A program made the translations under genes and the position numbers. Shown here piece after piece: positions 30,908 through 64,000 of a stretch of 64,000 nt of DNA (the stretch's first letter is position 1; each line of letters begins with the position of its first letter). Origin of the DNA: Bugula neritina (Eukaryota > Animalia > Bryozoa); assembly GCA_964035545.1 (NCBI GenBank), contig OZ037772.1:11716818-11780817 (forward strand), in the 5' to 3' direction. A model generated the notes under the pieces. It was not told the origin of the DNA and did no database searches. It was given only the letters and a program-made list of their open reading frames with translations.

Positions 30908-30950
<43 letters not shown>

Positions 30951-43259: not shown

Positions 43260-44951
43260 TTTCTCTTTCAAGTCCTCAGATCCAGTCCAGTTTCATGTAG
43301 ACATGTAAAGAGAAATGTCATACAGTTACCTGAGTCTGCAATAGACAGAATGTCAGCTTAGTAAAGGGATGCTGTCTGCTCTAAAGATATGATTGGCTAG
43401 TTGAAAAGCATTGTCCAATCACGTGCGACATGTCACTCGTATCTTTGTTTATTAATAAACTAAGAAGGAATGTGCCTTCGTTATTTAAACTGTCGTTAGG
43501 TCTGCCCTGCGTTCTCTCACCTGCCAACCGTGTCACATGACCTTGGTTGCTGTCCAGAGGACTAACCTGCCCTAGCTTGTCACATATCTAGTCAGCAATA
43601 GCATAGTACTTTGTACTTTATACTGTTTAGAGCCACATATAGTTCATTCGAATCCTCCAGCCAAGGAAACCTTCACTGCTAAAGAACTTTGCTTATATTG
43701 AAATTCTTTCATTTGTCCAACTGCATGGTGCCTGTTTTTCCTTACATTAAACTACAATAATGAGTCCACTATTTTATTTTTGGCAAACCTTGAAAACTAC
43801 AAGAGGTCAAAGTTCAACAAAATGCTGTTGTATAATTATTATTAGAAAGCTTATGATAATTAAATAAGCCTAACTGAATGAGAATATTTCAAATGCATGA
43901 CTAATATGAAAAAGTGAAAGAGCAATTGTTTTTAATATTTGTCCTTCACTTTAAAGCTGACTATTATATACCAAATGTAGTGTTGTGATGATTCCCCAGT
44001 AACCCCCCCCCCCCCCTTCTCCATAGTGATAAGGTACATGAGTTAGCATGTTAGCTTACAAGTTGCAGGCCTGAAGTATGTGTAGTTTGGAACATACCAA
44101 ACAGCTGATATAGGGTCAGGATATGTGTGCACCTGAATATACATACGCTGTTCAGTGTGCTCTGTGGAACCAGCAGTGTATATAAAGCAGCCACTTGTTT
44201 ATATAATACATGTACGTTGTGTAAACAGGTACATAGCAGCAAGAGCTGGTGCATGTGGCAGCATATAGAGTGTTGACGCTGCTGAAACACCTGCAGGTGG
44301 CACAGCTTTGAATTAACCATGTAGTAAAGTTACAAACTTATTAGCTATATATGGCATAAGTTTTTTATTTAATACTATATGATTTGAATGAAAAGTTAAT
44401 AAGATTCAACACTCATATATACCTTGCAACAAAGTATCTTCTATAGTCTATTCAATTAATCCTGGCTCGTTGTTTCAAGTTTATACAAATTTATAGCTAT
44501 AACTTAAGAGTTGCGTGAAATTGTTGAAAACTTGAAATTGCAGTAAATTATAGGTTACACAGTAACTTAGCAAGTTTAGCAAAACTTCTGAGAGAAGATA
44601 ACTTTTGAATATATATTTTAATTCCTTGGATGCGTTATTGTCAAGCAAATTTAAATAATCTTTTGATTTCACCAGCAATAAGAATACTAAAGGTGTGTTA
44701 AAGAATGCACTCCATTGCCAAAAAGATGAAAACAAAGCCTGCTGCATGAGTCTTAGGATGTTTTAGAAGTCATTGTCGATATGACATAGTTATCATTTGC
44801 CACAAACTTTAGACATCAGTGGCAGTATGACAAGCAGTTATCACCTGCAACTAACACCAGAGCTAGCAAATGATGGGAGCAACCAGGTGTTGATAAGCTA
44901 TTTGCTTTCTTTACAAGTTCCTTTTCAAATCCTAACTAAAACTCTGCAAAT

Positions 44952-47900
44952 ATGGCCGCTTCTCCTTCACTTCTCCTCTTCTTGTGTCTAGCAGTTGCTG
45001 GGTAAGTTATGAATATATTTATAATGTTTTTAATTATAAAACTTAAATCAATTTTAGCTTATTTAAATTATGATAATTATTGAAATACAATTTTAAAATA
45101 ATAAAAGTAATTACCTGCAGCCATGAATAAAGTACCAGGGAATATCTGTCACTATAAATCACGAAATCTCTATGCATACTTTCTATTTTCTTTAAATAAT
45201 TATACTTAAATTTTGATTAAGTTTAGTTCTGCATTTACTTAAAGTCTGTTATATTATAAAAATAAAAGGAAATTAAACACTGTTTGCTAATCTATATGTT
45301 GTCTTAGTTTACTTATTTTCAAAAGAAAATTAATTAAGAGTATGAAAGCGATTGCATCATAGAAACAACTTTTATGCCTTCTCTCAGCATGAGAACATAG
45401 TTATATAATTATAATTATATAGTATTTATATAATGTTGTAGAGCTAATGGGCTGTGGTGCTGTGGTGACATTGACACCAAGGTCACTTCACAGATAAAGC
45501 CTGTGACCCGCTCAAGGACCATTCAGATGACAGCCGTAGAAACCTATAACCTCAAAACAGGTTAGAACAGAGGCTAAACTCTAAATATAAAACTAATTTA
45601 CTATTAGAGTAGGCAAACTATCTTAATATACATTTTAGCTATTTATTCGAAATATATGAGCATGACTGTGCTGTGTTTTAAATTGAGATTTTAGCTACAA
45701 TGAAGGCATTCAATATAGCTTGTGTATGTCAAACAACAACGAAAATTGCCTTATAAGCAGCTGCGAGTTAGGGGAGGGACTATTTTAGCTTGGGGATCTC
45801 GAGTTTGGTGTTGGGGGACCTAACTCCAAACTTGAGACTCCAAACTAAATTCGTCCTTCACCCATAACTCGGAGATGCTTATAGAACAATTCCAACAAAA
45901 CCTCAGACAATAGCCTTTGTTTCTAGGCTATAAGATATGCCCCAACAATACGGTGGCTGAGAAGGACGTGCCGACTGGGCTAGGGAAGAACCCAGACAAC
46001 ACTGAGGAGAATAGAAAGAAAGTTTTTGGAAACAAGGGACGCTTCAACATCCTCGGTCTGCTGCTCAACGGCAAACTTGGTGGGTAGAAGACTTCACATC
46101 CTGTTTTAACTTTCTTGAGTTATTCCATTGGTTCAACTGAGTTTGATAAAACTGTTTATTTATAAACACAGCCACTTTTTTTGTTAAAAACCTAGACAAG
46201 AGCTTACAATATACTGCATATATATATTACAATTTTACGTTATGTTTTATACAGCATTGAGCATGGTAGCTTTTGTTAAAATATATTATATCATTTCATG
46301 CCGTATTGTGTGTGAGAGGTATTATATATCTTGATTGTATGAAACCATTAGAAACAATTAATATGCTGGCCATTAAGGCTTAATTATTGCTGTTATATAT
46401 ACACTTAGGTGTGCAAAAGGTTCTGTACGTGGTTTGTTTGTTGTGTGCGTATGTGTAAATGTGTGTGCGTATATTATATGTAACACATGAGTGTATACTA
46501 TATTATAAATACTTGCATACATGTTGATTATACACGTGACTTTATAAATTGCAGACAATGATGAGTATCACAGCTACTGTCCTGTCTATTCTATCAAAAC
46601 AAGGTAAATTAAACCATATATTACATAATCTGACAAGCTTGTACAGTATAGAAATTTAAATGTCAGGAGATATGAATTGTTTTATAGATAACTCTGCTGC
46701 TATTGGTATACAGAATGCATGTAAATATACTGATATTGTACTTTCAATTAAACCTATGTCTCAAATTTAATAGAATAATATGTCATAATATTGTATTTTC
46801 AAATTAAAGTGAGAAACTTTTTACAAATTTATTTTTAAAAAATGAGTTGAAATTGTAACAATTATTTTCCAAATTTATTTAGACGATTCAGTCGCAATGA
46901 GCGAACCGTTAGTAAATTATATTATGTACTCTGGTAGGCCTGTAGTAAATTATATTATGTAAATATGTGGTAGGCCTGTAGTAAATTATATTATGTACTG
47001 TGGTAGGCCTGCAGTAAAGTATATTATGTACTGTGGTAGGCCTGTAGTAAAGTATATTATGTACTGTGGTATAGGCCTGTAGTGAAGTATATTATATACT
47101 GTGGTAGGCCTGTAGTAAAGTATATTATGTACTGTGGTAGGCCTGTAGTAAAGTATGGCGTAGAATACTACAAGACGGCTGTGTTTGACGATGAAAAGGC
47201 TTCTTGTTCGGCCAATAAAAAGATTTGTTGTCGTGGTTACAAGCAAGTTGGAGAAAACTGTGTAGGTCAGTGAGAGAACAATTCTGGACATATTTTATGT
47301 CGACTAACAACTTTTTAAATAGCCAGTTTGTCACCTTTTGGCTGTGGGCCATTTTTTTCTAATTTCATAAAGAAAATACAAGCTTGTTTAAACTCTCAAT
47401 TTTAAGAGCCAAAAACTGTGCCTATACTAGCATGAATTACTTGAAGGCTCCTGCTTGAAACATATAAGAACAACTGCATGAACAGCTAGGTTTGTTCCCT
47501 GAAATCACCAATGACTTTGACAAGCTGTAAACCCATGATCTAGTGCATATATACTGTATCAATCTTACATTAAATTATATATATAATATATTGTTTTTAA
47601 ATACGTAAATTATATGTTATGTTTATATACGTATATATGTAATTGTGGTGTAATATATATGTGACATGAGTAGTATAATAAGCGCCTCTACGGCTATGGA
47701 AGTAAGCATCTCGCATCGACCAATTTGTCAACATAGTGTAGACTCTATGGCTATGGAAATTAGCATCTCGTTAACTATGTGAGCATTGTATTTGTTATTG
47801 ATGAATTAGCATTGTAAGCCTTAAAGTTGACAGGTGGTAGCTATTAAATTTAGCTTACGGTGAATACACCTTTTAACTAACTACGTAGTCAGAATCTCAC

Positions 47901-50900
47901 GTACTAAAACATTGATCTATGATTAGTTACCCTCGTTATATCACTGTTGTCACTTTGGTAAATTCTACACTCCGTATAATATTCAATAACCAAAAAGAGA
48001 TTTCTTTTCACCATGAGTTTATTTTCTTCAACAAAAAATGTCATAATAGAATATTACAGCTTTAAATTTTAACAGGATAAGAAGCTTGTTCAAAAATAAA
48101 AGGTAAGTCTACAATTTCCAGTTCTTTATTTAAAAAATTACTATATTTTTGATTAATGTAATTAAATATAAAAGCATCATTTGCGTATGTATCACAACAA
48201 TCATTTATTAAAGATATAATGTGTTCTAGTGAGAAACCTCTGGCTAAATGCGTTAACACAAAAATACAGTATTGTCCGCAAACTGTAGAAAATACAGATT
48301 GTAGCTGAGTGCTACTAAATTGCCAAGAGTCTACTGAATCAAATATAGCCGCAACCTCTGGCATGTTGTAAAGACCACTTCCAAAAGAGTCAAAATAAAC
48401 TCCTGTGTTATTTTCTGTCTTTAGAAACATCACCCAGTGCTCTCCCGGATGATTGTGAGGTTTAGTGTTTACAACTCCACAGCAAGGATAATCCGTCAAA
48501 CTACTACTAGGTATTCTATCGACTGGAAATACACCGATGAAGTTCATCTTTTTCACCCACTCATCGTTCTCAAGAATGGAATATATTTCTTTAGAATTCA
48601 TCACGCGTAGAAATTTGTAAGTACCGCTCTATTCTTATCAATTTTTATACCAGAGTCAAATTCGGAATAGACAATCACATTAACGGGTGTGTCAAGAGCC
48701 TGAGAAAACTTTAGCTCTAATCTTATTGTTCCTCGCTTCATCAAATGAAAGCAAGTGCTCAAATCTAGGTCAGGAGTTAAATCAAAGGCCATTAGACTGT
48801 AACCTTTCTCGTATTCCTCTCTATCTATATCTATTCCGCCATTGTTGAACACCTTTCCCGTTGATTCCAAGAGCGTAAAATAGTTTCTTAGAGTATTATG
48901 ATTTGTGTAGTCTGAAACCAATGCCTTCTGAGGTACTTGTTTCCCGTCAACGACTAGGTTTGTATATTTTAAATGTTTGTGCTGAAAGTTGAAAGGATTC
49001 AAATTGTACGCGCCTTCGAATGCACCAGCGTTTACAATACCTATAACTATCCTCTTAGGCAGAATACCGTGAAATAAATTTTCTTCGTTCCAAGACAATG
49101 AACCCAATGCGATATTGAATGACTTCATATCAACTCTTCTGATAGGATAAACGGCTGGCAATAGTTTCTTGTCTAAATTTTCAATGTGCTTTAATTGTAT
49201 TCCGCTATTGATTTTAACTTTTCGAAGGAAAAAAGATGCGTTTAGGATTTTTAGTTTGCAAGTAGAGTTTTCACCAGCCATTAGCACTAAGCTGTTGTGA
49301 TTCCTCACAAACTTTAATTTCATGTCTACTCCATTTAAAATGAATCGTCTTTGAAAGAATATGTCAGCGTGCGGTCTAACAATTAACTGCACAGTTTTAC
49401 TCTGCCCCGTAATTCGCCTTCTAGCTTCCAAGCCTTCATTATCACCACCAATGTGATCCATTTTTCCGGGTGTATCCTTTGAGTAGAGTGACATTGATAG
49501 TTGTGACTTTTTAGCTTCATCGGAGTAACTTAGTAAAGTTTCTATAAGAGCTCTGTAGTGGTAGAGATTAGAAGCGTTGGAAATAACTACATCATTTAGC
49601 ATAATTTCTACTTGTTGAAATAATGTGTGACCCAAAAGGTTTATAGGAGCCGCATCACCTTGAGCATCGAGATCCGTACCGTCAGCTTTTGTTATTTTCA
49701 CCTCTAATAATAGATAGCTTGAACTGAGGTCAAGGTAGTTGTTCGAATCACCAGAGATTGAGAACTTTATAGGTCCCTCATCATTCAGTGAGGTTGTGGG
49801 CATATGTTCTACGTGATATCCTTCTTCGATTGATGCTTGAGTAGGTAGTGTAGAAAATAAATCTAATTCGGGTTTGCCAGCGAGGCAGCTATGTTCCATT
49901 ATGAAACTCATAGTATAGTATTCTATGAAAAGATATCGCGTTTAGTAACCCTACGTCTTTTCACCTTTGAAGACTTGGAAGAAGTAACTCTGTTAGTCTG
50001 ACGCTTCCTTTTTTTATTTCGATTTCTGTTGGTGACGTATGTAATACCTTTAGTAATAACCTCTCCAGCCGCGCTGTTGACATTATCTTTAATTGACTCT
50101 CTGAATGGTTTACCGGATAAACTATCTCTGGCAATGTTTAGACCAGTATTTATTGCTGTCTTTCCTAAACTTTTTACACCTTGTTTTACAACAGGCAATG
50201 CTGCTTTGAGTATGTTACCAAATATGCTCCCTAAACCGTATCCTGTTTGATATTTTTCTCCTGAAAATATTGGAATCATTCCATTTCCTGATTGTTCATA
50301 TAACTGTCTATAGCTATTTGATGCGGCATCACAATCGAATGGAATTATTCTCATATTAGGTTTATAGGTTTAACTTTTCGAATATCTACCGTTACCACTG
50401 TACGTCCATGCGTGAATGGTACTCTTTCACCGTAATCCGTGTATATATAAATTGATACACTCGAAACATGCGTTTTATTTATTTTGCAGTACTGTACATT
50501 GTTAAAGTTAGTGGACTGCAACCTCCAATGACCATCCTCGACTCCTACAACTCTTAGTAGTTGAGCCTGAGTATCTCCAACAATACTAGATTCTGCTACA
50601 TCTGTATACACCATCAGGTTAAATATTGTATGTAATCTTATTGGAGTATTGTACTTGACCAAAATTGTGCCATCGGTCATTGATTTTATCTCCATTTTTT
50701 CTTCCTGTACATTAAGTATTTTCTCAAGAGATGGTGAGTATGTGATGTCTATAGAGCAACCTCTAACATTTTCAGCAATGACATAAAAATTCTTATTGAC
50801 ATCGTTGTAATAGAAATTAAATTTTACTTTCAGATTTAAACACTGGTCATTTATTGCTTGATTGATAGATTGTATTAGCTTTTTATCTGATTTGTAGTAA

Positions 50901-53900
50901 CCATCATCTAGATGCACTGTTTCTTCAGCTTCATTTACTTTTAAGGTTATGCTGCACTGTTTCACATTGAACCATGATTTATAAAATTGTATCTCACTCA
51001 ATCCGATCTCGTAAGAGCCATCTGTAAAATCTAAACTTTGAGGCAATTGAACTGTGTATACTGAAAGACTATTTTTTGGAAAATGCTTCAACGAAGCATT
51101 ACTAGGTAAAACAACGCGCATCTTTGTAAGAGTGACAACATATAAGTTTATTATCTAATTCTTATAGTTAAAAATTACATCTCTTTTATCAACATACGAG
51201 TCAAAACTTGGCGGATATCCAGCCCACCTTACAAGAAATTGTTTTTTACCATTTACAGTACGCTGACCAACAATTGACTCTATTTTATAGGTGTTGCTCT
51301 TGGTGTTTACTTTCTGCAATTCCGGTTCATACCATGTTCCTTCTAGCTGATCACCGCTGTCATCCGCGAGAGAATACACTGGAGGATTAGTAGTGTGGAT
51401 TTTCGCTATGGTAAAGATTTCTTCGCTCCAAGAAGGAAGGTATCCTTTTTTAAATACTGTACTATATTTCGATATTCTAACGAGATCTCCAACATTGTAT
51501 TTTAGTTTGTTAGTTTGACCACTCTGACTATCTGTGTATAGTCTATGCCAAATTTCTTCTTGATTGTTAACTGTCACATCATTAGGTGTTGAGTTATGAG
51601 CCGAGTGTTTCGAGTTATTGTATGATGATATTAGATCATTGAGAATGTCAAGATATCTGTGACTGTTTTGATGAGTAAAATATTTAAACAATTTAGCCTT
51701 TAGTGTTCTTTGCAGTCTTTCAACCATAGATGCTTTAATTTCTTGATTGTTGGATGAAAAGTGGTTTATGTTATATTCTTTCATTAATGCTTTAAATTGA
51801 GGGTTAAAGAATTCTTTGCCTCTATCTGATAAAATCATTTCTGGTGGAGTGTTGTTGTTTTCGTTTTCTATAATCTCCCTCATAGCTCTACTCACTTCTA
51901 AACCAGATTTAGTTTTGAGTGGTACACCGTAGGCTTTACGACTGAATGTGTCAATGCTTAATAGTATATACTTGAATCCATTATTTTCGGATGAAAACTG
52001 TTGGAGATCTGTTAAATCAATTTGCCACATGGCATTAATACCTGATACAATATACTTTCGTCTGGGAAAGTTTTTTCGCAAAGGTTTATGTAGGTTATAG
52101 CTGTCAGTTTTTTCAAGCCATCTATCAATTGCACCCTTGCTTACTTTGCCTTTTAATGATTTGTATAATTTTGCTTTACTACCAAATCCGGCTGGTTTAG
52201 AAATATTGAAATAGGTGTCTCGAATTAGTTTATCAGTATAGCTGGAGTCTGGATTTTGCTTTTTTCGTTTTCGCCTTGCCATCGTATGGATCCCACTCGC
52301 CTGATGACAATTTACTAGACTCTCTTCTACTTTTAGATTTCTCTTCGATAACGTTTTGATTAATGAGTAGTTTGGGTACATTGTAATCAATTAATACTTG
52401 TCTAAATTCTTTCCACCCTTCCAATGTTTTACCTTTCAGTTGACTATTAACCGCAAGATTTAATAGATCAGATAAATTGCTTCCGCGTAGTTGGTTGCCG
52501 TTAATAGTTACCTGCCCCGCATCATTTACAGAAACTTTACCATCTTTTTTCAGTATATCCCAAAGTTGACTCGCCTTTGTTTTAAATCTTTGAGGGATAG
52601 CTAGTAGTGGGTTATAAGATGTAAGACTTTCTGTTTCTTTTAGTTGTGGTTCACTATTCTTTGATAAAGTAGGCAACCTTGTGCTAGATATTTTCTTATA
52701 AGTAGTAGTTTTTAACTCTTGATAATTAGTCAACGCGTTGTTATAAGCAGTTACTTTCTTATTTTCTGATAGCGTGTTGTCATTTAAGATTTCACTCATT
52801 AGCTTATCTACGGCAAATAGTTCTTTAGTAATCAAAGGTTTGTTTCTCTCGACTTGTTGATAATCATTATTTTTGCTGACATCAGCATTTACAAATGAGT
52901 TGTGTTTTAGATCCGCGGCATCCACTAACAAGAATTTTCTAGCGCTTTGCGAATTCATCTTTTTCTAAAACCGCTGAATATTCCTTTCGCTAGTGGTGCT
53001 AGAACACTTCCTATTAGTGGTCCTAAAAGAGCCGAGAGAAACCCTCCTTTCTGTACCAGTGTTTTTTTAGTTTTCAGTGTACTCTTTTTATCAGCAATCT
53101 TTCTTAAAATATTTTTGTATTTACCTAAGTTGTTTTCTTCAGTAGGTGACAATGACACCTTGCCTTTTAATACGTTGTAGCAAATATCTGAGAAACAGTT
53201 CAACAGTTCACTACCCGCTGCGTTGATGATTGCTTTACAGTTGTGTTTGTCACATTCAGCTAAATAACTTAGAGTCTTGGCATGTTTTTTAATTCTAGCG
53301 GTCATGATTTATGTTAGCTTCAAGCTGCATTTCTTTGTAATGAAGTAGCGTTTCTGTTTGACAAATAGATATAGGTTTTCTCACCCGGAAATACACCTGT
53401 TCTAATGCGCAAATAGTCTTCTGTCTCTTGCCTGTAGTCTATAACCAAGTACCCAAAGGGGACAGAAGTGGCGTCTCGAAACGCTTCAACAACAAAATTA
53501 CTCTGGTTTTTAGGAAACATTTGTCTTGCCAAATAGGATATCTGGTTCACGTCTCTAGGGTTTTTAAATACAACAACATAAGAAGCGCTTCGAGACATTG
53601 TTCTCATGTGAGAGTTGTCTTGAAACAGATTCTGTGTTATAAATATTACGCTTATGTTGCGATGGTGACTGTGCTTAGTAAATATGTTTTCAATATTCTG
53701 ATCTATTTCACTCATTAAATCATCAAATATTATCAAGTTTTTTATATTTTTGTTTAATTCTTGTATATCGATAACACCTTGATGAAACTCAACGTTGTTG
53801 TATGAGCTAAACAGTGGCTGCCACTCACTATAACAATATATTATTTTTTCAGGTGGAGGTGATATCATTGTATGACTGTTGGTAATCAATTTCCTTACCC

Positions 53901-56900
53901 ACTGAGTTTTACCAGCCCTTGAAGGACCAGCTACAATTGCTGAAAATGTATGGTAGAAAGGTAAGCTCATGATGTTAACTGTATATTCCGAGAGTTTATT
54001 CCCAAATAATTGTATCAAGTAATGTACAAAAATATTAATAGGCATAAAAAAGTATAAATAGATTTAGGCAAGTTCAGGCATGTTTAGGCATGTTTAGGCA
54101 TGTTTAGGCAAGTTTAGGCAAATATACACAATTATATACAAAATAAACTATTGTACATTGTTTTGTTTCTCGAGAGCTATTCCCAAGTTCCATTGGATCT
54201 GTTGAATAAAATATTTCACTGCGAAGTGTTCTCCAGCCTCGATATACATTTTGCAAATTTGCACGCACAAGAAAAATATTGTTTCTAAGCGAATAGCTGA
54301 GATATTTGGATCAGTCAAATCTTTTGCCACTTTACAAAACTGAACGTAACCGTTAGTCTCGTACATATCCTCGGCTAGTTCGACCAATTCATTTATTTCT
54401 TCCTCACTCCAATTTTGATGTTTATTGTACATGTCCAAAACGGTTTGCGTTATACAATAGTTAACGTAATGTTGTCTACTCATTTTCGAAAGCTTGTACC
54501 ATATATAATTATAAGCGTTTTTCTGTAATAGGTATAAATTTTCCATCGTAGAATATTGATTGATGCGACCTATCAACCGAACAGTGAAATACCAATTAAC
54601 TGAACGCGCTAACTGAACACAGTTTTTTTACAGTAAAGTAGGTTTGGTTGTCACGTGATCTTGTGACACAATTCTCTTTCCGTAAAAATAATTTAAAGCT
54701 TTTCGATTTTGAACGTACGTGAATATTTCTTCACCTTTTACTCGAAAACCCTTGTTCGTACCGTAAGCAATTTTCTGATTTATCAATACATCGAAGTAAT
54801 CTTTTTCGGTATAGTTGTTGTGCAATTTACTGACACCTTTTGAACTGTATTTAGGTTCTTCCCCGAAACAATAGTAACATTTGGAGCAAAGCGCTACAAC
54901 ACCTCGGGAGACATTTTCGCAGTGAAACAACCCCAAAGATCTTTTGTGGAACTTGGCACTAGCTTTACAACAGTCTAATGGATTCCAGGTTTGCCCGTTA
55001 AACATACATTGAAAATATTGTGACTTGTGTTCATCGCAATATTCTCTACACATCCAACTAGTGTGTTCTTGTTCAAATTCATTTCTCATATCACTTTTAA
55101 CCGCTAGGTACAAAGTTTTTTCACTTAGAGCTAAATACATTGAGTCAGTGTCCATTTGAATCAAAGCAAAACTGTCTAGAGATAGAAACTTTAACAAGAA
55201 ATCGTAATAGAATTTCAACATGGCTAGCTTTGCATACTCTAATACTTGAAAGCCAATTTGTACTGGTACATTGAGTCTAATCTTAGCTTTTCGTGATTCA
55301 ATTTCAACTAGTTGAGAATCAATTTCTTGTAAGCTGTTAAATCTAGGATTGTTTACCAGTCTTGAGATGTTTGTCTCTTCAGCATCACAATATATGATAT
55401 CAGTGTGACTCTCCAGGTTGACTAGTGTTCGGCCATACGCAGAGTTTCCTGAAATATAGCGAAGTGGATTATTTTGAAATATATTGAGTAATTATTCAAT
55501 GCAAAAGTTATCGCTCTTGCTAGATGCTTAAGTGATTTGCATATTAATAACCATTGAATAAGTGCTATGTCTAAACATGTCAATATTTACTAAATACCTA
55601 TTAGTTTGCATGAATCCGATATAATCTTCTTTGAGGAATCGAGGTCACCAGCTCTCCTGGCCTCCATTACCTTTTCACCAAACAGCTTGAAGCATTTTGA
55701 TGGCTTGTATTGAATTACTTGATATACTTTTGTAACCACTAAGCCGTGTTGTAGGTACCATTGCAGTAGCGGGGTGGACAAAAGGATTTTGTTCCCGAAA
55801 TAGCTACTGATTAAAGTACGTGATGGCTTTTTTAGTAAACCATTTCGTTCTGCAAATTGTTTCATGTGTGGGCCTATGTCATCCCTTGATATCAGTACAT
55901 TTTTTTGTATAGGTTGATATTTAGCAAATATTGTTTTCAAGTCTTCAGGTGTTTCTATATCAACTTCAGCCATTCCAAACATTGAACCATTTTTGATTTC
56001 TTCTAGTATTTTGCTTTCTGATATTACGTATCTTGAATCAACAATGAAGTCCAGATTTGAGCAGAACTCACTGACATCACTGTTTTCCTTTTTCAAATTA
56101 TCAAATTCACACTCCCAAGTATGGTAGACTCTGTAACCCAAATCTTGGAAATATTTCAGCGTATTGTATGTGTCTATTTGATTTTGTAAATCTTTTTCTT
56201 TGTTATTAAACTTTCCATTTGGACAATAGTCGCATAGATGTCCGTGAAACCAGCATCCTGAGTAGTTGAACACTTGTTCACTACCATCACTCGCCAGAGC
56301 GTATCCATCGACTGGTATGTTTCGTCCACCTATTCGACGTTCGGTGCTATTAAACTTGTGTTGAATTTTGACTCCGAGCAGCTTTGACATGTATTTTAGC
56401 CATACTGTAGCTTTTTCACCCGAATAGTAGCTTTTTTCTATTCTAAAGCTATTTTCTCTCCGCCTTCTTACAAAGGCTCCTGTGGGCATATCTTTCACTA
56501 GGCAACTCAAATATAAACTTGTCGCATCATACCCTACACATGTTTGCGTAGTTTTGGCTTGATCACCAAAGTATTCAGGTTTAATCTTTGTTGCGCCAGC
56601 TTCTTGATACCTTGAGAACACAATTGATAAACCACCTCTAATGTTTGATTTGATAAGTTGGTGAATGTCTTTAAACTTATCACCAAACAGAAAGATTGGC
56701 GCTTCTGGGTCTTTTAATTGAAATAAATATTGAATCGCTAGTCCTGGTATAGATATAGCTGACTTGAAATCAAGATTGCATGATTTGTAAAATTCATTTT
56801 GCTTTTCTAATGCTGGTATAAAGTGTCTGACATCTTCGTTATTGTAGTACTCTAGTAAGTCTTTTAATGTTTTCATTCCTTTCTGCACCCATATTTCTTT

Positions 56901-59900
56901 GCATTTTTCATACTCCTGAACGGATATGTTTTTACCTTTCAGTTTACTGTAAAACTCTTCATGAGCGGGGAACTCTGTTCTGTCTAGCACTTCCATAGAT
57001 GTGAATATGTCATAAGGCCAGAAGAATTTTTCCCCTTCAACTCCCATAGCTTTTAGATAATCAGAGTACGAAAACCCTGGAGCAAGGAAATTGAGCACGT
57101 CTAGAAATCTTAATTTTTCCGTTTGAATACACATGTATTTGTTTCCTTTTTTAGCTGTAAACAAAACTTTTTGGTTTTGTTCTAATAGATACCGTAGCAT
57201 ATGTTGTCGAATCAATGGAATGTCATAGACAGCGCCGTTGAAAGACAAGATCATCAAGTCTTTCAAATAACAGTGGAGTTGACTTTCTAGTGATTCAAAC
57301 TTTTTTTTGACATTGTTCACTGCTTTGTTATTACAACTAGCTTCAATTTCTTTCTTGATACACTCGTCAGCTTTTTCACGTAGTTGTTTAAACACATCAT
57401 TGTATCTAACAAGCAATCTCTGGTAGCATACTTCAGACAGCTTTGTAAGGAAATCCATCATTTTCACAACCAGCTCGTATTCATTTCCAGAATTCATGAA
57501 ATTCACTGGTTGTGTATAGCCAGATACGTTTGAGCATAAACTTATACAAGCCAACTTGTGTTTGTTTTCATAGTGTATTGTATTTGTGTTTGCAGGTAAA
57601 TCAATCGAAGACATCATCGTTTCGCAATCAAACACAGCAAAGTACGGATAATGTCGTCTATTTTCATCAACTGTGATGTGAACATCTTCAAGCTTTTCGA
57701 AAATAGATCGAGACGGAGTATACACCCCGTAGGGATACACAAGGTTTGTTTCACCAGCTGTACATACTGTGTTATGACTATTCAACGCTCTGACTGATTT
57801 CATTAGCTTGTTACAAAATGTACATTTGTATGACTTTGTGTAAAGAGAGATGTTTTTTATCCAACTGAAATGTGATTCCTCTAGATGTAGGTTTAGTTTG
57901 TGTTTGTAATTGGTAGTGGCTCTGTACATAAGCTTTGCATTAGCTTCTTTCCCTGTATTGTATTCCAAGGTGTACACATTAATAGAACAGTTCAGTATTC
58001 GCTCGGCAAATCTGAGGTCTGATAAAGGCACTCCTGTAAAATCTTGATTCAGTTTGTTCATACCATTCAAGTACATTTCATAATAATGTTTCGTAGACTG
58101 TGTTAAAGTACTCTGCTGCCCCTTTGAGTAAGCTAGAGCTCTAAATAGACATAAGTTGTCTTCATACAGTCTTCCAGTTGTATCAGTGCTAGCTGTTATA
58201 ATTGCTTTGTTTTGTTTTGTTCTCTCAGATGGAGATATAGGGCATCCGATATTGTGATCTGGTATAGGAAATACATACAATGTAATATTTGTTATTTTGT
58301 GAACACTCCACGAAGTGTTTGGCCTGTTTTGAGTTGCTTTCTCTATGAAATCTTTTTCTGTCATTTCTTTCACAAGTTGATTGAAATCTTGTAAATTCTC
58401 TATTAGCTTTGGCGAGGCAAAAAGTTTATCAACACCCATGCTAGCATGAAAGTATCTCAACTTTTCCTCATTTTGATTCAAAAGGATAAAACCAATTGAA
58501 GCATTGCATTTGAATTTCAATGTTTGTTCATGAAATATTAATTTCACTTCTTTATTGTTTAAAGTTGAAATAATGTCATTGTCTTTTATCAATCGATTGT
58601 AGACACTACAATATTTCCCTTTTCTGTTGTACGTTCTTATAGCTGACCAGTTTTTTCTCAATAGAGCATTTGTTTCCTCTTCGTAAATGCCTTTGTACTG
58701 ATAGCGTTCAATATCATCACTGAATGTGGTTTGAGGCTTTTTGTTTGACCTTCTCTCTGCTCCGTTTGAGTTTGTATTCTAAAATTTACCAAGATTACCA
58801 TTGATTAGTTAGCTTTGAGTTTGTTGTAATAGTATATGTAGTATGATCATATTCATATCGTATCGTATCACTCAGTAGATAAATTACCGTGTTATGACAT
58901 CGGTGATTTGTTTTCCACGGTGCATACAACCGTTTACATTGATCACATCTTTTTTTGTGGATACTTTGGTGCCTGCTCAAACTTTGCCTGTGGTTATAAC
59001 TTTTTCCACATATGTGGCACTTGAATTTCTCTAAAACATTGAAGTATAAATTATTCTTTTAACCACCTTGATAGAGATGCAAGGATCAAAGAAAATTACT
59101 TCAAATAGAGATATTGTTTATTAATATGTAAATAGATACACTCATAAATGTATATACTTGACATATAGTGGCATTATCAGATAGAATTGTCAGGTTTACT
59201 ACACTCTTCATCAGAGCCAGAAGAACAGTGTTTTAAACTTTTTCATCGAGTATATATTAAGATATATTGAAATAAATTGAAATAGATTGAAGTATATAGA
59301 TATTGTATATTAACAACTCGCTTTTATACATTTTGTGTTTAATAGTGGCAGAGATAGTATTGAATTTCTTTTCATCGAGTATATATTGAGATAGATTGAA
59401 GTATATAGATATTGTATATTAACAACTCGCTTTTATACATTTTGTGTATAATAGTGGCAGAGATAGTATTGAGTTTCTTTTCATCGAGTATATATTGAAA
59501 TAGATTGAAGTATATAGATATTGTATATTAACAACTCGCTTTTATACATTTTGTGTTTAATAGTGGCAGAGATAGTATTGAGTTTCTTTTCATCGAGTAT
59601 ATATTGAAATAGATTGAAGTATATAGATATTGTATATTAACAACTCGCTTTTATACATTTTGTGTTTAATAGTGGCAGAGATAGTATTGAATTTCTTTTC
59701 ATCGAGTATATATTGAGATAGATTGTAATATATGGATGTTGTATATTAACAACTCGCTTTTATACATTTTGGGTTTAATAGTGGCAGAGATAGTATTGAA
59801 TTTCTTTTCATCGAGTATATATTGAGATAGATTGAAGTATATAGATATTGTATATTAACAACTCGCTTTTATACATTTTGGGTTTAATAGTGGCAGAGAT

Positions 59901-62900
59901 AGTATTGAATTTCTTTTCATTGAGTATATATTGAGATAGATTGAAGTATATAGATATTGTATATTAACAACTCGCTTTTATACATTTTGGGTTTAATAGT
60001 GGCAGAGATAGTATTGAATTTCTTTTCATCGAGTATATATTGAGATAGATTGAAGTATATAGATATTGTATATTAACAACTCGCTTTTATACATTTTGGG
60101 TTTAATAGTGGCAGAGATATAGTATTGAGTTTCTTTTCATTGAGTATATATTGAGATAGATTGAAGTATATAGATATTGTATATTAACAACTCGCTTTTA
60201 TACATTTTGGGTTTAATAGTGGCAGAGATAGTATTGAATTTCTTTTCATTGAGTATATATTGAGATAGATTGTAATATATAGATGTTGTATATTAACAAC
60301 TCGCTTTTATACATTCAATAGTAGCAGTGCTAGTATTGAATTTCTTTTCATTGAGTATATATTGAGATAGATTGTAATATATAGATGTTGTATATTAACT
60401 CGTTTTTATACATTCAATAGTAGCGGTGCTAGTATTGAATTTCTTTTCACTGAGTATATATTGAGATAGATTGTAATATATAGATGTTGTATATTAACAA
60501 CTCGCTTTTATACATTCAATAGTAGCAGTGCTAGTATTGAATTTCTTTTCATTGAGTATATATTGAGATAGATTGTAATATATAGATGTTGTATATTAAC
60601 AACTCGCTTTTATACATTTTGTGTTTAATAGTGGCAGAGATAGTATTGAATTTTTTTTCATTGAGTATATATTGAGATAGATTGTAATATATAGATGTTG
60701 TGTATTAACAACTCGCTTTTATACATTTTGTGTTTAATAGTGGCAGAGATAGTATTGAATTTCTTTTTACTGATTATATATTGAGATATATTGTAACAAT
60801 ATTTTAAACAATAATACGCATAAAAGTATTCCATTCACCAACATAAAATATTTCCCCATCACCAAAAAATACAACATATTTATATTAGAGAGTCAGTGTC
60901 AGTCCGTCAGCCTAAAAATTTTATGATCGGCTCCGATCGTTTAAAATAATTATATTCATCCGGTGATATGTCGTCTAGTTTGATTTCGGTCACATTTAGT
61001 GACCAAAATAAGTCCTCGTTTACTTTTTTTATCACACCGCTTCTCAACACGCATGTTAATTTTCCCACTTTTCCATACAGTTGTTGTACATTTAATAACA
61101 CAGGTTGTCCATTGACTACAGCATTTACGCAAATTTCGTCTTCCATGTTTCTGACCACGTCAACATAACATCCGAGCAATGATGCATTTTCACTTTTACC
61201 GTAAAACTTAACTTTTTTTTCAAAAATTTTAGCTAGCTTTGTTTTAAAAAGTTCTAGATTTTTAGATTTTTTCACATATAAACATGGCCCACTGTTGGGA
61301 ATTTTCGACTCGTATATTTTTAATTCACCTATAAATTCATCAGATTTAAAAAAGAATTTACGCGAATGATTAAATGTAGGTATTATCTTGTCATTGTCAG
61401 TGTAGTAGGATAATTGTGATTGATCATAATTAAGAGGGACTAAATAGCAACCTTCTTCATTTGCAGGTGTTTTGCTCTGATCGACAGCGGTAGCAGCAGT
61501 GGCAGCATCATCACTTGTAGTAACAGTTGTACCAGTAGAGGAACTAGCGGATGGAATAGACAACGTCATAGAGGAAGGAGTGGTAGTAGCGCTAAAAAAG
61601 AGGGATCTATTACTATGTTTTATAATATGTAACTTATTCTACGTAATATAATTTATTACACGACAAACGTCTGTTTATTTGTTTATAGTTTGTCAAGTGA
61701 ATACAATTAATTGTGAGTCTTACAGATGATTGATGATTTACGATATTCTACTAACCTCACGCTGGTAGATACAGATGGCTCGCTAGTCGACTCATCCACC
61801 TTTGGAATTGATGCAGGTTTCTTACGCTTTGATTCACCAGACTTAGATTCACTAAAATAATATTATTGTAATGAATAAAATGCTACTTTTAGCTGATAAA
61901 AAAGGTTAGCATAATTATAGAAAGCTAACACTATAGTAAACTAAAATCATTCTCGTGTTAATAATATTCTAACAGGTTAGTGGTTAGCATAGTTATAGAA
62001 AGCTAACACTATAGTAAACTAAAATCATTCTCATGTTAATAATATTCTAACAGGTTAGTGGTGAGATATCCAAAAGAAATATATTATTACTTACTTTTTT
62101 CTTTTAGAAGGCTTTAAGGCTTTGAGTGGTTCAACTGTACTGGAACTAGTACTCGTTTCTCCCACTTTTCTTCTGAGTTGTAGTAGTTCAGCTTCTAACT
62201 TCTTTACTAAATCTCCCATGGTGTTTGCTGTATGGTTTGGGATGCGATGAAACATAGAAGTTTTTCGAGGCTTTTATATACTGAGATTTTGTAATTTATT
62301 CCTACGTAAATGAAATTTATCTTAACTAAAAGTTTTCCTCTTTTTTATTATAGGGAGTTGGGTGGTAACATTTTAATTGTAATCTGCCGGTTTAAGGTTT
62401 ACTCACGTAAGCAATATTATATCAGTTTACGTAGGTGATACGTGTTTTAACAGTTGCATATGTATTTAAATTTCAACTAGGACACTTCCCATCCGTAAAT
62501 TAGAAATTGCCGTGTCATCCATCTTAGCTGAAAAATTTTCCGATTTCTAACTATAATGAGGAATTGAGTTGTTAAATTTTAAATACAATCCACCCATCTA
62601 GGGTTTAATTACTGGGCGATATTATATCAGGTTATACAAGATTTTATTATGTTTTACTTCCCATTGATTAAATTGGAAACCGCTGTGTCACCTCCTAATT
62701 TTTGCTAATATTAATTTTTACTTTGTCAAAGTTTCAAACATCATTAGCATAAGGTTAATTATCTTTTTTCTGCTTTTTGAGTTTCAGAAAAATTGTGTCA
62801 AGTTATAAGTTTAAAAATGGAGTTGCAAATAGAGTTGGACCATAAGACATGTTTTTTGTTTCCATTTAACATTTTATTATAAACTATGAGTTGTATACAG

Positions 62901-63995
62901 AAAAACATTACATTCCGTAATAATTATTTTCTAAAATGTGTTTAGTCAAAACTGTTAACAGCTTAGATGGTGAAGACGCATCACTCTGAGACATATTACC
63001 ATTCAAGAAAAAATATTGTATAGTTATAAAATCCCCGTGAACTTTAGTGTTGCAAACAGCTAGTTTTAAATTGTCAGTCATTTCGAAGTGTTTTGTGCAG
63101 TTATTGAACATTCTGTCTAAAGTATAATTAGTTGAAAACATCTTTCCAGAAAAGCTACCATTACCGCTCATAACTATGTTGATTACATTCATTGATAAAA
63201 ATAGTGCTACCAGGATAATAGCGATAGGTTTCTTTTTTAGTTCTGAAAAGCTCCAGTCATTCTTTGCATTATCTCTCCTGGTCGAAACTTTATTAATGAG
63301 TGTATTCCGATTATGTACAACTTTTCTCGCCACATCTAACTCATCTTCAGCCACATTTGCATCTTGTTCATTAAATATAGGATCTTTATTTTGCAAGGGA
63401 AAATTTTCTACTTCTGTCATCATTGATTAACCTTTGCGCTCAAAACATATAACGATGAATGATGTAAATTTCAGAATGGTGATGTTTTATACCAAAAAAC
63501 ACACAAATTTTGACTCGCAAACTGTATAACTCTCAGCTCAGTGAGTAAATTTTGTTACTTATAAAGTTAGTGACAAGGATATACAGCTAAACTAATCATT
63601 GATCCACCTTCCAGTAATTGCTTAAAAAGGTGTATTCACTGTAAGCTAAATTTAATAGCTACCACCTGTCAACTTTAAGGCTTACAATGCTCACATAGTT
63701 AACGAGATGCTAATTTCCATAGCCATAGAGTCTACGCTATGTTGACAAATTGACCGATACGAGATGCTTACTTCCATAGCCGTAGAGGGGCTTATTATAC
63801 TACTGACATGTGCTTACTATTAACACAGAAACATACATATTATTATGTGTAAAATATATGCACGCATTCGATCTCATATGTGAGGAATTGCTGTGTTACA
63901 AATACAAACCTGTCATTTGTTTTGCAGAAGAAAAAAAAGCTGGTGATGCAAATGACGCTCTGGACTTCCTTAAGGGTCTTGGCATTGTTGGATAA
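44952..63995 (+). CDS. Small secreted EMI-domain-like host protein, ~7 exons; last intron contains the Polinton
   Basis: Phase-compatible exons: 44952-45001 (signal peptide MAASPSLLLFLCLAVAG), 45442-45560, 45927-~46079, 46555-46603, 46883-~46910, ~47149-47265 (…KICCRGYKQVGENCV, EMI-type CCxGY-x5-6-C end; phase-1 donor G|GTCAGT) and 63928-63995 (TTTGCAG|AA, phase 1; EEKKAGDANDALDFLKGLGIVG-stop). Confidence 0.7.
45745..45890. mobile_element. Short palindromic MITE-like element
   Basis: Imperfect inverted arms AATTGCCTTATAAGCAGCTGCGAGTTA ... TAACTCGGAGATGCTTATAGAACAATT, with an inner CTCGAGTTTGG/CCAAACTTGAG pair. Confidence 0.55.
46911..47155. repeat. ~33-bp tandem repeat filling an intron of the EMI-like gene
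   Basis: Unit TATTATGTACTGTGGTAGGCCTGTAGTAAAGTA, ~7 copies, running into the next exon. Confidence 0.9.
47669..47874 (+). repeat. Left TIR (206 bp)
   Basis: Reverse complement of 63625-63804, with 6 substitutions and a 26-bp extra segment. Confidence 0.95.
48062..48601 (-). CDS. Adenain-like cysteine maturation protease (PRO)
   Basis: Motifs NTKPHNHPGEHWV, YFDSFG, QLQS..STVCGQYC (His/Asp/Gln/Cys). ATG at 48601 overlaps the MCP stop (TGATG). Confidence 0.92.
   Translation of the reverse strand: MNSKEIYSILENDEWVKKMNFIGVFPVDRIPSSSLTDYPCCGVVNTKPHNHPGEHWVMFLKTENNTGVYFDSFGSGLYNMPEVAAIFDSVDSWQFSSTQLQSVFSTVCGQYCIFVLTHLARGFSLEHIISLINDCCDTYANDAFIFNYINQKYSNFLNKELEIVDLPFIFEQASYPVKI
48601..49911 (-). 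CDS. Major capsid protein (double jelly-roll, Polinton PY/hexon-like), 436 aa
   Basis: ELDLFSTLPTQASI, YLDLSSSYL, TLFQQVEIMLN, YHYRALIETLL, LPKRIVIG, NPFNFQH, GYSLMAFDLTPD are typical Maverick MCP motifs; position fits. Confidence 0.9.
   Translation of the reverse strand: MSFIMEHSCLAGKPELDLFSTLPTQASIEEGYHVEHMPTTSLNDEGPIKFSISGDSNNYLDLSSSYLLLEVKITKADGTDLDAQGDAAPINLLGHTLFQQVEIMLNDVVISNASNLYHYRALIETLLSYSDEAKKSQLSMSLYSKDTPGKMDHIGGDNEGLEARRRITGQSKTVQLIVRPHADIFFQRRFILNGVDMKLKFVRNHNSLVLMAGENSTCKLKILNASFFLRKVKINSGIQLKHIENLDKKLLPAVYPIRRVDMKSFNIALGSLSWNEENLFHGILPKRIVIGIVNAGAFEGAYNLNPFNFQHKHLKYTNLVVDGKQVPQKALVSDYTNHNTLRNYFTLLESTGKVFNNGGIDIDREEYEKGYSLMAFDLTPDLDLSTCFHLMKRGTIRLELKFSQALDTPVNVIVYSEFDSGIKIDKNRAVLTNFYA
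49923..50354 (-). CDS. Conserved small basic Maverick protein (putative core/membrane-lytic precursor), 143 aa
   Basis: QSGNG / QTGYGLGSIFG..LKAALP motif, amphipathic helix, K/R-rich tail ending DIFS; lies between the minor and major capsid genes. Confidence 0.7.
   Translation of the reverse strand: MRIIPFDCDAASNSYRQLYEQSGNGMIPIFSGEKYQTGYGLGSIFGNILKAALPVVKQGVKSLGKTAINTGLNIARDSLSGKPFRESIKDNVNSAAGEVITKGITYVTNRNRNKKRKRQTNRVTSSKSSKVKRRRVTKRDIFS
50351..51121 (-). CDS. Minor capsid protein (penton, single jelly-roll), 256 aa
   Basis: N-terminal VLPSNAS..FPKNSLSVYTVQLP..YEIGLSEI and C-terminal VYTDVAESSIVGDTQAQLLRVV motifs of Maverick mCP. Confidence 0.85.
   Translation of the reverse strand: MRVVLPSNASLKHFPKNSLSVYTVQLPQSLDFTDGSYEIGLSEIQFYKSWFNVKQCSITLKVNEAEETVHLDDGYYKSDKKLIQSINQAINDQCLNLKVKFNFYYNDVNKNFYVIAENVRGCSIDITYSPSLEKILNVQEEKMEIKSMTDGTILVKYNTPIRLHTIFNLMVYTDVAESSIVGDTQAQLLRVVGVEDGHWRLQSTNFNNVQYCKINKTHVSSVSIYIYTDYGERVPFTHGRTVVTVDIRKVKPINLI
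51155..52282 (-). CDS. Retroviral-type (rve/c-int) DDE integrase with C-terminal chromodomain; probable start MARRKRKK at 52282 (ORF open to 52390)
   Basis: WQIDLTD, LSDRGKEF, ASMVERLQRTLK (D,D,E); KGYLPSWSEEIF; chromo-like YKIESIVGQR...FLVRWAGYPPSFDSYV. Confidence 0.93.
   Translation of the reverse strand: MARRKRKKQNPDSSYTDKLIRDTYFNISKPAGFGSKAKLYKSLKGKVSKGAIDRWLEKTDSYNLHKPLRKNFPRRKYIVSGINAMWQIDLTDLQQFSSENNGFKYILLSIDTFSRKAYGVPLKTKSGLEVSRAMREIIENENNNTPPEMILSDRGKEFFNPQFKALMKEYNINHFSSNNQEIKASMVERLQRTLKAKLFKYFTHQNSHRYLDILNDLISSYNNSKHSAHNSTPNDVTVNNQEEIWHRLYTDSQSGQTNKLKYNVGDLVRISKYSTVFKKGYLPSWSEEIFTIAKIHTTNPPVYSLADDSGDQLEGTWYEPELQKVNTKSNTYKIESIVGQRTVNGKKQFLVRWAGYPPSFDSYVDKRDVIFNYKN
52233..52958 (-). 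CDS. Conserved Maverick hypothetical protein (PZ-type, label tentative), 241 aa
   Basis: Motifs MSEIL..LSENKKV..Y, VNDAGQVTING..LRGSNLSDLL, GWKEF..NVP resemble the uncharacterised ORF seen next to the integrase in animal Mavericks. Confidence 0.7.
   Translation of the reverse strand: MNSQSARKFLLVDAADLKHNSFVNADVSKNNDYQQVERNKPLITKELFAVDKLMSEILNDNTLSENKKVTAYNNALTNYQELKTTTYKKISSTRLPTLSKNSEPQLKETESLTSYNPLLAIPQRFKTKASQLWDILKKDGKVSVNDAGQVTINGNQLRGSNLSDLLNLAVNSQLKGKTLEGWKEFRQVLIDYNVPKLLINQNVIEEKSKSRRESSKLSSGEWDPYDGKAKTKKAKSRLQLY
52955..53305 (-). CDS. Conserved small basic Maverick protein with adenovirus pX/mu-like C-terminus, 116 aa
   Basis: NVLKGKVSL..YKNILRKIADKK..LVQKGGFLSALLGPLIG; ATGA overlap with the next gene. 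Confidence 0.75.
   Translation of the reverse strand: MTARIKKHAKTLSYLAECDKHNCKAIINAAGSELLNCFSDICYNVLKGKVSLSPTEENNLGKYKNILRKIADKKSTLKTKKTLVQKGGFLSALLGPLIGSVLAPLAKGIFSGFRKR
53320..53970 (-). CDS. FtsK/A32-like DNA packaging ATPase (probable start MSLPF at 53970; ORF open to 54045)
   Basis: Walker A GPSRAGKT, Walker B LIIFDD, HHRNISVIFITQNLF, VFKNPRD, PFGYLVID. Confidence 0.92.
   Translation of the reverse strand: MSLPFYHTFSAIVAGPSRAGKTQWVRKLITNSHTMISPPPEKIIYCYSEWQPLFSSYNNVEFHQGVIDIQELNKNIKNLIIFDDLMSEIDQNIENIFTKHSHHRNISVIFITQNLFQDNSHMRTMSRSASYVVVFKNPRDVNQISYLARQMFPKNQSNFVVEAFRDATSVPFGYLVIDYRQETEDYLRIRTGVFPGEKTYIYLSNRNATSLQRNAA
54066..54115. promoter_or_regulatory. Five tandem p53-family consensus half-sites (putative response element)
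   Basis: AGGCAAGTTC AGGCATGTTT AGGCATGTTT AGGCATGTTT AGGCAAGTTT; each is 10/10 RRRCWWGYYY with zero spacer. Function is untested. Confidence 0.6.
54148..54546 (-). CDS. Accessory alpha-helical protein, putative divergent Bcl-2-like fold, 132 aa
   Basis: ATG at 54546 (MENLY). The segment GYVQFCKVAKDLTDPNISAIRLETIFFLCVQIC...V..F...I...L keeps the gap-free register of the Bcl-2-family alpha4-BH1-alpha5-alpha6 region. The ORF is well supported; the fold is inferred. Confidence 0.55.
   Translation of the reverse strand: MENLYLLQKNAYNYIWYKLSKMSRQHYVNYCITQTVLDMYNKHQNWSEEEINELVELAEDMYETNGYVQFCKVAKDLTDPNISAIRLETIFFLCVQICKMYIEAGEHFAVKYFIQQIQWNLGIALEKQNNVQ
54628..59030 (-). CDS. polB: Protein-primed family B DNA polymerase (pPolB) polyprotein, spliced: exons 59030-58888, 58778-55598, 55448-54628; first exon unresolved; ~1380 aa
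   Basis: ExoI FDCET, ExoII FNGAVYD, ExoIII YNNEDV, motif A YDATSLY, motif B KLIG|NSAYG rebuilt across a 149-bp GT-AG intron, motif C MDTDS, KCY..SKGV. The N-terminal part has a C2H2 finger and an OTU-like DNLCLFRAL..SHFSW region. Confidence 0.92.
59240..60797. repeat. 109-bp tandem array, 14 copies (three ~100-102-bp variants), inside the Polinton
   Basis: Anchor CAACTCGCTTTTATACA recurs at 59314, 59423, 59532, 59641, 59750, 59859, 59968, 60077, 60188, 60297, ~60398 (degenerate), 60498, 60600, 60709. Confidence 0.95.
60907..62219 (-). CDS. Three-exon Polinton gene (62219-62095, 61851-61756, 61591-60907), 301 aa; putative nuclear ssDNA-binding protein
   Basis: Kozak ACCATGG at 62219; donors AA|GTAAGT and AG|GTTAGT; acceptors TTTTAG; both introns are phase 2 and the frame is continuous into track ORF 60907-61569. 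Coiled-coil N-terminus, KRKN..KRKKP NLS-like motif, S/T-rich linker, beta-rich C-domain. Confidence 0.75.
62271..62280 (-). promoter_or_regulatory. TATA box of the 3-exon gene
   Basis: TATATAAAAG about 50 nt upstream of the Kozak ATG at 62219. Confidence 0.6.
62908..63423 (-). CDS. Accessory single-pass membrane protein, 171 aa
   Basis: KKKPIAIILVALFLSMNVINIVMSG signal-anchor-like segment, followed by N-x-S/T sequons NGS, NYT, NCT, NMS; TATAAAA at 63491-63485. Confidence 0.65.
   Translation of the reverse strand: MMTEVENFPLQNKDPIFNEQDANVAEDELDVARKVVHNRNTLINKVSTRRDNAKNDWSFSELKKKPIAIILVALFLSMNVINIVMSGNGSFSGKMFSTNYTLDRMFNNCTKHFEMTDNLKLAVCNTKVHGDFITIQYFFLNGNMSQSDASSPSKLLTVLTKHILENNYYGM
63625..63804 (-). 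repeat. Right TIR (180 bp)
   Basis: Inverted copy of the left terminus; ends ...TTATACTACT followed by the TSD GACATG. Confidence 0.95.
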
Positions 63996-64000
63996 ATCGA

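Follow-up and report, generated by a model that had tools for sequence, protein, structure and literature searches.

The window analysed here, 64,000 nucleotides of Bugula neritina (Bryozoa) contig OZ037772.1 (assembly GCA_964035545.1, positions 11,716,818 to 11,780,817, forward strand), contains a full-length, intact-looking, virus-like element of the Polinton/Maverick family; all coordinates below are window positions. The element proper occupies 47669 to 63804 on the minus strand (16,136 bp), has the ends AGTAGT...ACTACT, that is (AGT)2//(ACT)2, and is flanked on both sides by a 6-bp target-site duplication, GACATG (47663 to 47668 and 63805 to 63810, plus strand). The chance of finding a matching 6-mer at both element ends is about 6e-4 given the local composition. 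The terminal inverted repeats (TIRs) measure 206 bp on the left (47669 to 47874) and 180 bp on the right (63625 to 63804) and are imperfect, with 6 substitutions over 180 aligned bases and one 26-bp indel. Both the AGT-type TIR ends and the 6-bp duplication are hallmarks of Polintons/Mavericks. The identity, boundaries and orientation given in the original prediction hold, with the refinement that its span of 47663 to 63810 includes both duplications.

The element has eight Maverick core genes, which follow the known order and all lie on the minus strand. Read from the right end of that strand, the element carries a 171-amino-acid (aa) open reading frame (ORF), a three-exon accessory gene, a 109-bp tandem array, the polymerase gene pPolB, and a 132-aa ORF, followed by the packaging ATPase, ORFs of 116 and 241 aa, the integrase, ORFs of 256 and 143 aa, the major capsid protein (MCP), and the protease. 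The minus strand holds all 14 stop-to-stop frames of at least 70 codons with recognisable or conserved genes, as had been proposed for the viral genes, and the plus strand of the element has 8 frames of 71 to 100 codons. No in-frame stop was found in the core exons, which leaves about 11.6 kb of coding DNA without one. The suggestion that the element may be competent for virion formation is supported as far as coding capacity goes, while particle formation would be a prediction from gene content; according to PMC8097293, Maverick particles have not been observed.

The adenain-like maturation protease (48062 to 48601, 179 aa; this and all other genes of the element are on the minus strand) was recognised with a profile of 17 relatives, which matches African swine fever virus (ASFV) S273R (E 2.9e-9) and the adenovirus protease (E 8.2e-7). 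Residues H55, D71, and C108 are invariant in 17 of 17 rows of the alignment, from which the related loci L041, with a stop codon, and L050 were left out. The double jelly-roll MCP (48601 to 49911, 436 aa) was assigned from an AlphaFold2 (AF2) model (predicted local distance difference test, pLDDT, 87) with Foldseek matches to the Sputnik and PBCV-1 capsids (E ~1e-16). The nearest named relatives of both the capsid protein and the polymerase are proteins of another bryozoan, Watersipora subatra, at 62% to 65% identity. Taken with the weak innexin match noted below, these relatives point by sequence alone to an invertebrate host, likely a bryozoan. A collection of viral contigs contained no relatives of either the MCP or the accessory domain described below. 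In the related loci L063 (MCP at 22-366 and 3068-4036) and L069 (2925-3269 and 5971-6939), about 2.7 kb interrupts the capsid gene at residue 115, probably as a nested insertion. The integrase (51155 to 52381, 408 aa) has an rve domain (Pfam, E 2.4e-14) with its D/D/E motifs and a C-terminal chromodomain (Chromo, E 1.8e-6), and the packaging ATPase (53320 to 54045) matches Pfam Adeno_IVa2 (E 8.6e-5, above the cut-off) and contains Walker A and B motifs.

The smaller genes are less well characterised. The 256-aa ORF (50351 to 51121), conserved and found at the expected position, is probably the minor capsid protein (penton/PX). Three others are named by position: the 143-aa ORF at the PW position (49923 to 50354, in 51 of 80 related loci), the 241-aa ORF at the PZ position (52233 to 52958, in 8 of 80), and the 116-aa ORF at the PM position (52955 to 53305, in 24 of 80). 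The 143-aa and 116-aa ORFs contain Gly-Gly or Gly-x-Gly followed by a hydrophobic stretch, which we take to resemble adenovirus protease sites and protein X/VI-like segments. The 132-aa ORF (54148 to 54546) has no assigned role and one relative, at the same place in the related locus L005. The 171-aa ORF (62908 to 63423), recognised as an ORF only, has a hydrophobic stretch, and neither Atlas nor Pfam gave a usable match for it. The 109-bp array (59272 to 60793) consists of about 14 copies with 95% matches. L005 has the same pPolB-to-protease order, with core genes 42% to 68% identical to those of the window and three smaller ORFs at 27% to 33%. In 13 of the 15 related loci that hold both PolB and MCP, the two genes are on one strand.

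The claim that all core genes are uninterrupted does not stand, as pPolB is split by at least two, and probably three, GT-AG introns and is open only if spliced. The main exon (55598 to 58778) encodes Exo I to III, Pol A, and the first half of motif B, and the last exon (54628 to 55448) encodes the second half of motif B and motif C, completing the motif set of a Polinton polymerase. Between them lies a 149-bp, phase-1 GT-AG intron (55597 to 55449) that separates the Gly of motif B from the Asn. Since this intron interrupts an active-site motif, an active polymerase would need its removal. A phase-0 intron separates the main exon from a C2H2 zinc-finger exon (58888 to 59030; Pfam zf-C2H2, E 7.8e-6), and a third, upstream intron is likely, with a possible 7-nt start exon (59158 to 59164) of fitting phase and weak donor. 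L005 contains a 152-bp GT-AG intron at the same motif-B site and splice sites of the same phase at the other two positions. That locus also has an extra polymerase intron (L005:3730-3865) that is not in the window's element and, upstream of PolB (L005:300-390), what we take to be a dUTPase-like C-terminal motif.

The position of the motif-B intron is not peculiar to this copy. The polymerase has 271 homologs, several of them carrying PF03175, and was placed with 69 relatives in a quick tree. In 16 of these 69 the ORF ends just after the motif-B Gly (P0162 and P0176, which read through with a variant motif, were not counted), and 15 of the 16 join the window's polymerase in a 24-row clade with an SH-aLRT support of 100. 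The other 8 rows of the clade read through; they may represent gene models already spliced or genes free of introns, which look alike in those rows. Because the intron position is common to a clade whose polymerases are only 52% to 73% identical, the intron appears to be an old part of the element. At the DNA level, L006 and L032 lack the motif-B intron. In the related element at L006:7078-11315, PolB is inverted and intronless and is divided between two frames around 10,500-10,600. A search of PDB sequences with the polymerase gave no match.

The accessory gene (60907 to 62219) has exons at 62219 to 62095, 61851 to 61756, and 61591 to 60907, with phases that close. Its last exon, with 52 homologs, is predicted to specify a domain for binding single-stranded DNA (ssDNA), of the type found in T7 gp2.5 and in nucleocytoplasmic large DNA viruses. 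Among 48,161 chains, the best VIA match of the AF2 model (pLDDT 93.6) is ASFV CP312R (Z 9.2, root mean square deviation 4.6, 159 aligned), followed by T7 gp2.5 (Z 6.4) and the Enc34 ssDNA-binding protein (SSB; Z 5.5), with DUF2815 completing the best four; only CP312R exceeds Z 8. Foldseek agrees on CP312R (E 2.2e-4), 117 BFVD viral models match at E<=0.001, those listed being mostly giant-virus proteins, and Atlas pointed toward the same ssDNA-binding type at low recognition. The model has the oligonucleotide/oligosaccharide-binding (OB) fold of the gp2.5/Enc34/CP312R type at about 10% sequence identity to these proteins; unlike them, the accessory gene is spliced and has a low-complexity, basic N-terminal extension. 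Searching PDB sequences with the accessory profile produced nothing useful, Pfam gave nothing consistent across 53 family members, and the 80 related loci, most of which end before that region, contained no significant match. Several families of giant viruses are known to have SSBs of the T7-like kind (PMC11253617), and a likely role for the predicted domain would be coating the displaced strand in protein-primed replication. Inside the first intron of the gene is a 78-bp tandem duplication (61904 to 62062, 97%).

The closest described counterparts are the 134 intact vertebrate Mavericks of PMC8097293, which the window element resembles in size (16.1 kb versus 12.7-24.6 kb), in (AGT)2//(ACT)2 ends, in the 6-bp duplication, in its eight core ORFs, and in coding capacity. 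The Maverick of X. tropicalis in that paper has the same one-strand order, pPolB-ATPase-PM-PZ-integrase-penton-PW-MCP-protease. The vertebrate elements are described there as intronless, whereas the window element has 2 to 3 GT-AG introns in pPolB and 2 in the accessory gene; it also differs in its invertebrate host and gp2.5-like gene, and it is not filed under the vertebrate type. Adintoviruses (PMC8502044) are alike in having adenain, hexon, penton, an FtsK-like ATPase, an rve integrase, and PolB between inverted terminal repeats, and the main text of that paper, supplements aside, contains none of the strings 'splic', 'bryozo' and 'Bugula'. Nematode Mavericks/Polintons share the core set and a TIR-adjacent accessory region able to hold intron-bearing genes (10.1101/2022.07.12.499685, PMC10748475), but their core genes are described as intronless (10.1101/2022.07.12.499685), unlike the window's pPolB, and they carry an 866-aa fusogen, whereas the window element has no unassigned ORF of such size. 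Spliceosomal introns inside integrated virus DNA are shared with dinoflagellate Polinton-like elements, whose introners are mostly recent insertions of host transposons (PMC11957031), in contrast to the old, clade-shared motif-B intron; in elements of protists, the introns on report belong to the introners or to group I (PMC11957031, PMC12220804). In the literature searched, with subscription papers and supplements outside its scope, we found no paper on Maverick elements in bryozoan genomes, on spliceosomal introns in animal Polinton polymerases, or devoted to a gp2.5-type SSB in Polintons. The element adds a new and young member to the Polinton/Maverick family, and its place in the genome is ordinary.

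Evidence on age and mobility comes from contigs of four public runs (X1, X2, X5, and X6), compared with window positions 44700 to 59100. Over the 8 longest element pieces listed for X1, the dominant version differs from the window at 18 of 10,336 bases (0.17%); the pieces listed for the other runs differ at 29 of 3,515 (X2), 28 of 3,747 (X5), and 41 of 3,037 (X6). Among the contigs listed, loose ends before 47669 number at least 3 in X1 and at least 1 each in X2 and X5. Other flanks at the terminus mean that other insertion sites exist and that the element is mobile. The foreign flanks in X2 and X5 differ at 1 of 30 letters and represent one other site common to two studies. Near-identical copies are present elsewhere, and the insertion itself is likely recent. 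The CpG observed/expected ratio is 0.76 in the element versus 0.42 in the window's host DNA. Dating the insertion by TIR divergence was rejected for its conflict with the open frames: if the TIR mismatches were post-insertion decay, about 8 stops would be expected, and finding none has P ~3e-4. The mismatches are therefore probably an inherited asymmetry; a TIR variant at 47724 makes up 1055 of a depth of 2310 in X1. Contigs of X1, X2, and X5 also follow the TIR as far as 47731 and diverge from it in the same way beyond that point, which suggests a second Polinton family sharing the terminus.

The original prediction had proposed looking for the empty allele, and the contigs of the public runs go part of the way. 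The sole X1 host contig listed at 47546 to 47598 (depth 89.7) ceases to match at 47668, where the duplication ends; the distance to the contig's end is 104 from 47565 and 71 from 47598. If the haplotype existed only in filled form, the contig would continue through about 30 bases of the TIR, which makes an empty allele in X1 likely.

On the plus strand, a seven-exon gene model spans the element (44952 to 63997). Exons 1 to 6 are predicted at 44952 to 45001, 45442 to 45560, 45927 to 46079, 46555 to 46603, 46883 to 46911, and 47149 to 47265, and exon 7 at 63928 to 63997, with 22 codons to a TAA. All introns are GT-AG, the phases close, there are no stops, and the protein of about 195 aa has a hydrophobic N-terminus and is probably secreted. 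The last intron measures 16,662 bp filled and 520 bp when the element and one duplication are removed; the ratio of 32.0 reproduces the proposed 32-fold enlargement. A search with exon 3 found no longer relative and no homolog of the host protein, which is weak evidence, Pfam had no match for exons 2 and 3, and a 24-nt pattern from predicted exon 7 had 0 matches in metagenome contigs. Exon 6 presumably resembles an EMI domain. The fifth intron (46912 to 47148, 237 bp) is almost wholly a 33-36-bp minisatellite whose unit borders each offer an overlapping acceptor and donor, and it may have been born by tandem duplication of exon sequence.

That the element lies antisense to this gene needs no special mechanism. 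Since most relatives carry all their genes on a single strand, half of the landings in introns would look antisense, and the placement is ordinary. It had been proposed that every splice site and poly(A) signal lies on the opposite strand, which is not the case: the host strand of the element contains 9 AATAAA and 11 ATTAAA hexamers (22 and 27 on the minus strand), 24 GTRAG donors (21 on the minus strand), and 53 YAG sites whose pyrimidine richness equals or exceeds that of the true acceptor. Use of the first such cryptic acceptor, at 48424, would add 12 codons and then a stop, and an AATAAA lies at 49073. The accompanying idea that the antisense orientation should spare host splicing finds no support in the sequence, given these many cryptic signals and other host introns of only 237 to 475 bp. 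In mammals it is established that selection biases intronic transposons toward the antisense orientation (PMC3517506, PMC3088655).

The explanation that we favour, and hold to be quite probable, is that of a full-length Polinton with an open core that recently inserted in antisense into the probable last intron of the host gene. Several observations weigh against it. The penton candidate is assigned by position only, and its profile matched no capsid among PDB sequences; the pPolB start exon is a guess; PF03175 is not matched by the window's own polymerase ORF, though relatives carry it; the splicing of pPolB, which we consider likely, is predicted from DNA; and the empty allele is inferred from a match end. 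The remaining objections concern the 47265/63928 junction, a gene-model prediction, and they are also the case for placing the element in or just past the 3' end of a host gene that ends in exon 6. Unspliced exon 6 meets an in-frame stop at 47271-47273, two codons past the donor, a poly(A)-like ATTAAA at 47569 lies ahead of the insertion, the host protein lacks a found homolog, and exon 7 is short, its 21 open codons after the acceptor having a chance of about 0.19 at the local composition. We nevertheless think an exon-6 ending unlikely. The donor after 47265 (GTCAGT) is of good quality, no strong acceptor other than 63927 lies in the part of the last intron that derives from the host, both sites are phase 1, and the GC content of exon 7 (0.40) is closer to that of the other exons (0.37-0.52) than to that of introns (0.21-0.36; 0.30-0.32 in the flanking intron). 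Nesting in the last intron, as originally described, remains the probable arrangement, borne by seven phase-compatible GT-AG exons. Whether it harms the gene is a separate matter. Mis-splicing of the enlarged intron, or its truncation at cryptic sites, with the allele rare or heterozygous, is a serious possibility that we lean against. The cryptic signals and short neighbouring introns described above would fit it, as would the position of the insertion 117 bp from the host acceptor, near-exon insertions being the hazardous class in mammals (PMC3088655). On the other side, hexamer and YAG counts do not equal function, the insertion leaves the native donor, polypyrimidine tract, and acceptor as they were, and just 22 codons depend on the splice. 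Polymorphism of the insertion is probable, and the filled allele may do mild harm.

Two further alternatives concern the state of the element itself. The first, that of an insertion both old and decayed or of an artefact of assembly, with openness reflecting a consensus over many copies, could draw on the TIR differences, on decayed copies with frameshifting indels in X2, X5, and X6, and on the fact that none of the contigs listed spans the stretch. We consider it very improbable in view of the duplication, which is perfect on both sides, the fit of the host exon phases across the element, the stop-free coding DNA, the 0.17% difference from the dominant X1 version, and the high CpG ratio. The second concerns the abundance of the element in X1. 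Per-contig depth of the element there is 1003 to 1154, against host depths, chosen from the rows listed, of 62 to 68 per haplotype at three heterozygous places and 86 to 143 at five single-contig places. The resulting element/host ratio is 8 to 17 in X1, which may be close to the source sample, compared with 2.0 in X2, 2.6 in X5, and 1.9 in X6, although contig depth is not a measure of copy number. The excess corresponds either to about 8 integrated copies per haploid genome or to free replicating DNA. Free linear DNA from an active infection or reactivation, in place of some 16 integrated alleles, would agree with the contrast between runs, with long and nearly invariant X1 element contigs, with 3 junction contigs among those listed before 47669, and with the midge data set of PMC8502044, for which free replicating DNA has been suggested and in which one predominant high-depth version is accompanied by rarer host junctions. 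It seems doubtful to us, since contigs drop rare variants, X1 junctions number at least 3, and 8 integrated copies per haploid genome would be ordinary (teleosts have 9.92 +/- 10.11 intact Maverick copies per genome; PMC8097293). The most far-reaching reading, that of a splicing-dependent, SSB-encoding Polinton lineage of bryozoan-like hosts in active replication, with the X1 version largely free linear DNA and the window locus a fresh germ-line integration, is correspondingly speculative, and we rate it as unlikely.

A cycle consistent with the gene content can be proposed. The rve integrase would join a linear copy to host DNA with a 6-bp stagger, of which the duplication is the observed trace. 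Nuclear host RNA polymerase II and the spliceosome would then produce the polymerase and SSB mRNAs, as the conserved GT-AG introns suggest. Protein-primed strand-displacement replication from AGT-repeat ends is established (PMC8097293, PMC11161782), and the linear copy would replicate in this way from its AGTAGT ends, with the gp2.5-like protein coating the displaced strand. The ATPase, capsid proteins, and protease could package the copy, or the integrase could re-insert it, and selection would tend to keep antisense intronic insertions.

While an intact antisense intronic Maverick is in itself an ordinary transposon insertion, the points worth keeping are the spliced polymerase, the ssDNA-binding gene, and the amplification in one sample. 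An old intron in a polymerase active-site motif would make the element dependent on nuclear transcription and splicing, and surveys blind to introns would score such elements as broken. The predicted gp2.5-type gene would supply the helper that strand-displacement replication needs. With one version at 8-17x host depth, a sample of the X1 type is one whose existing raw reads might reveal if an animal contains free genomes.

Elsewhere in the window, a short high-copy repeat in a host intron (45857 to 45892; X1 depth ~500, many loose ends in all four runs) is probably a small mobile element. The neighbouring host genes include an MnmE/TrmE tRNA-modification GTPase on the plus strand (29000 to 33759; Pfam E 1e-16) and, on the minus strand (36000 to 43300), a probable innexin with a weak match (E 0.0024).

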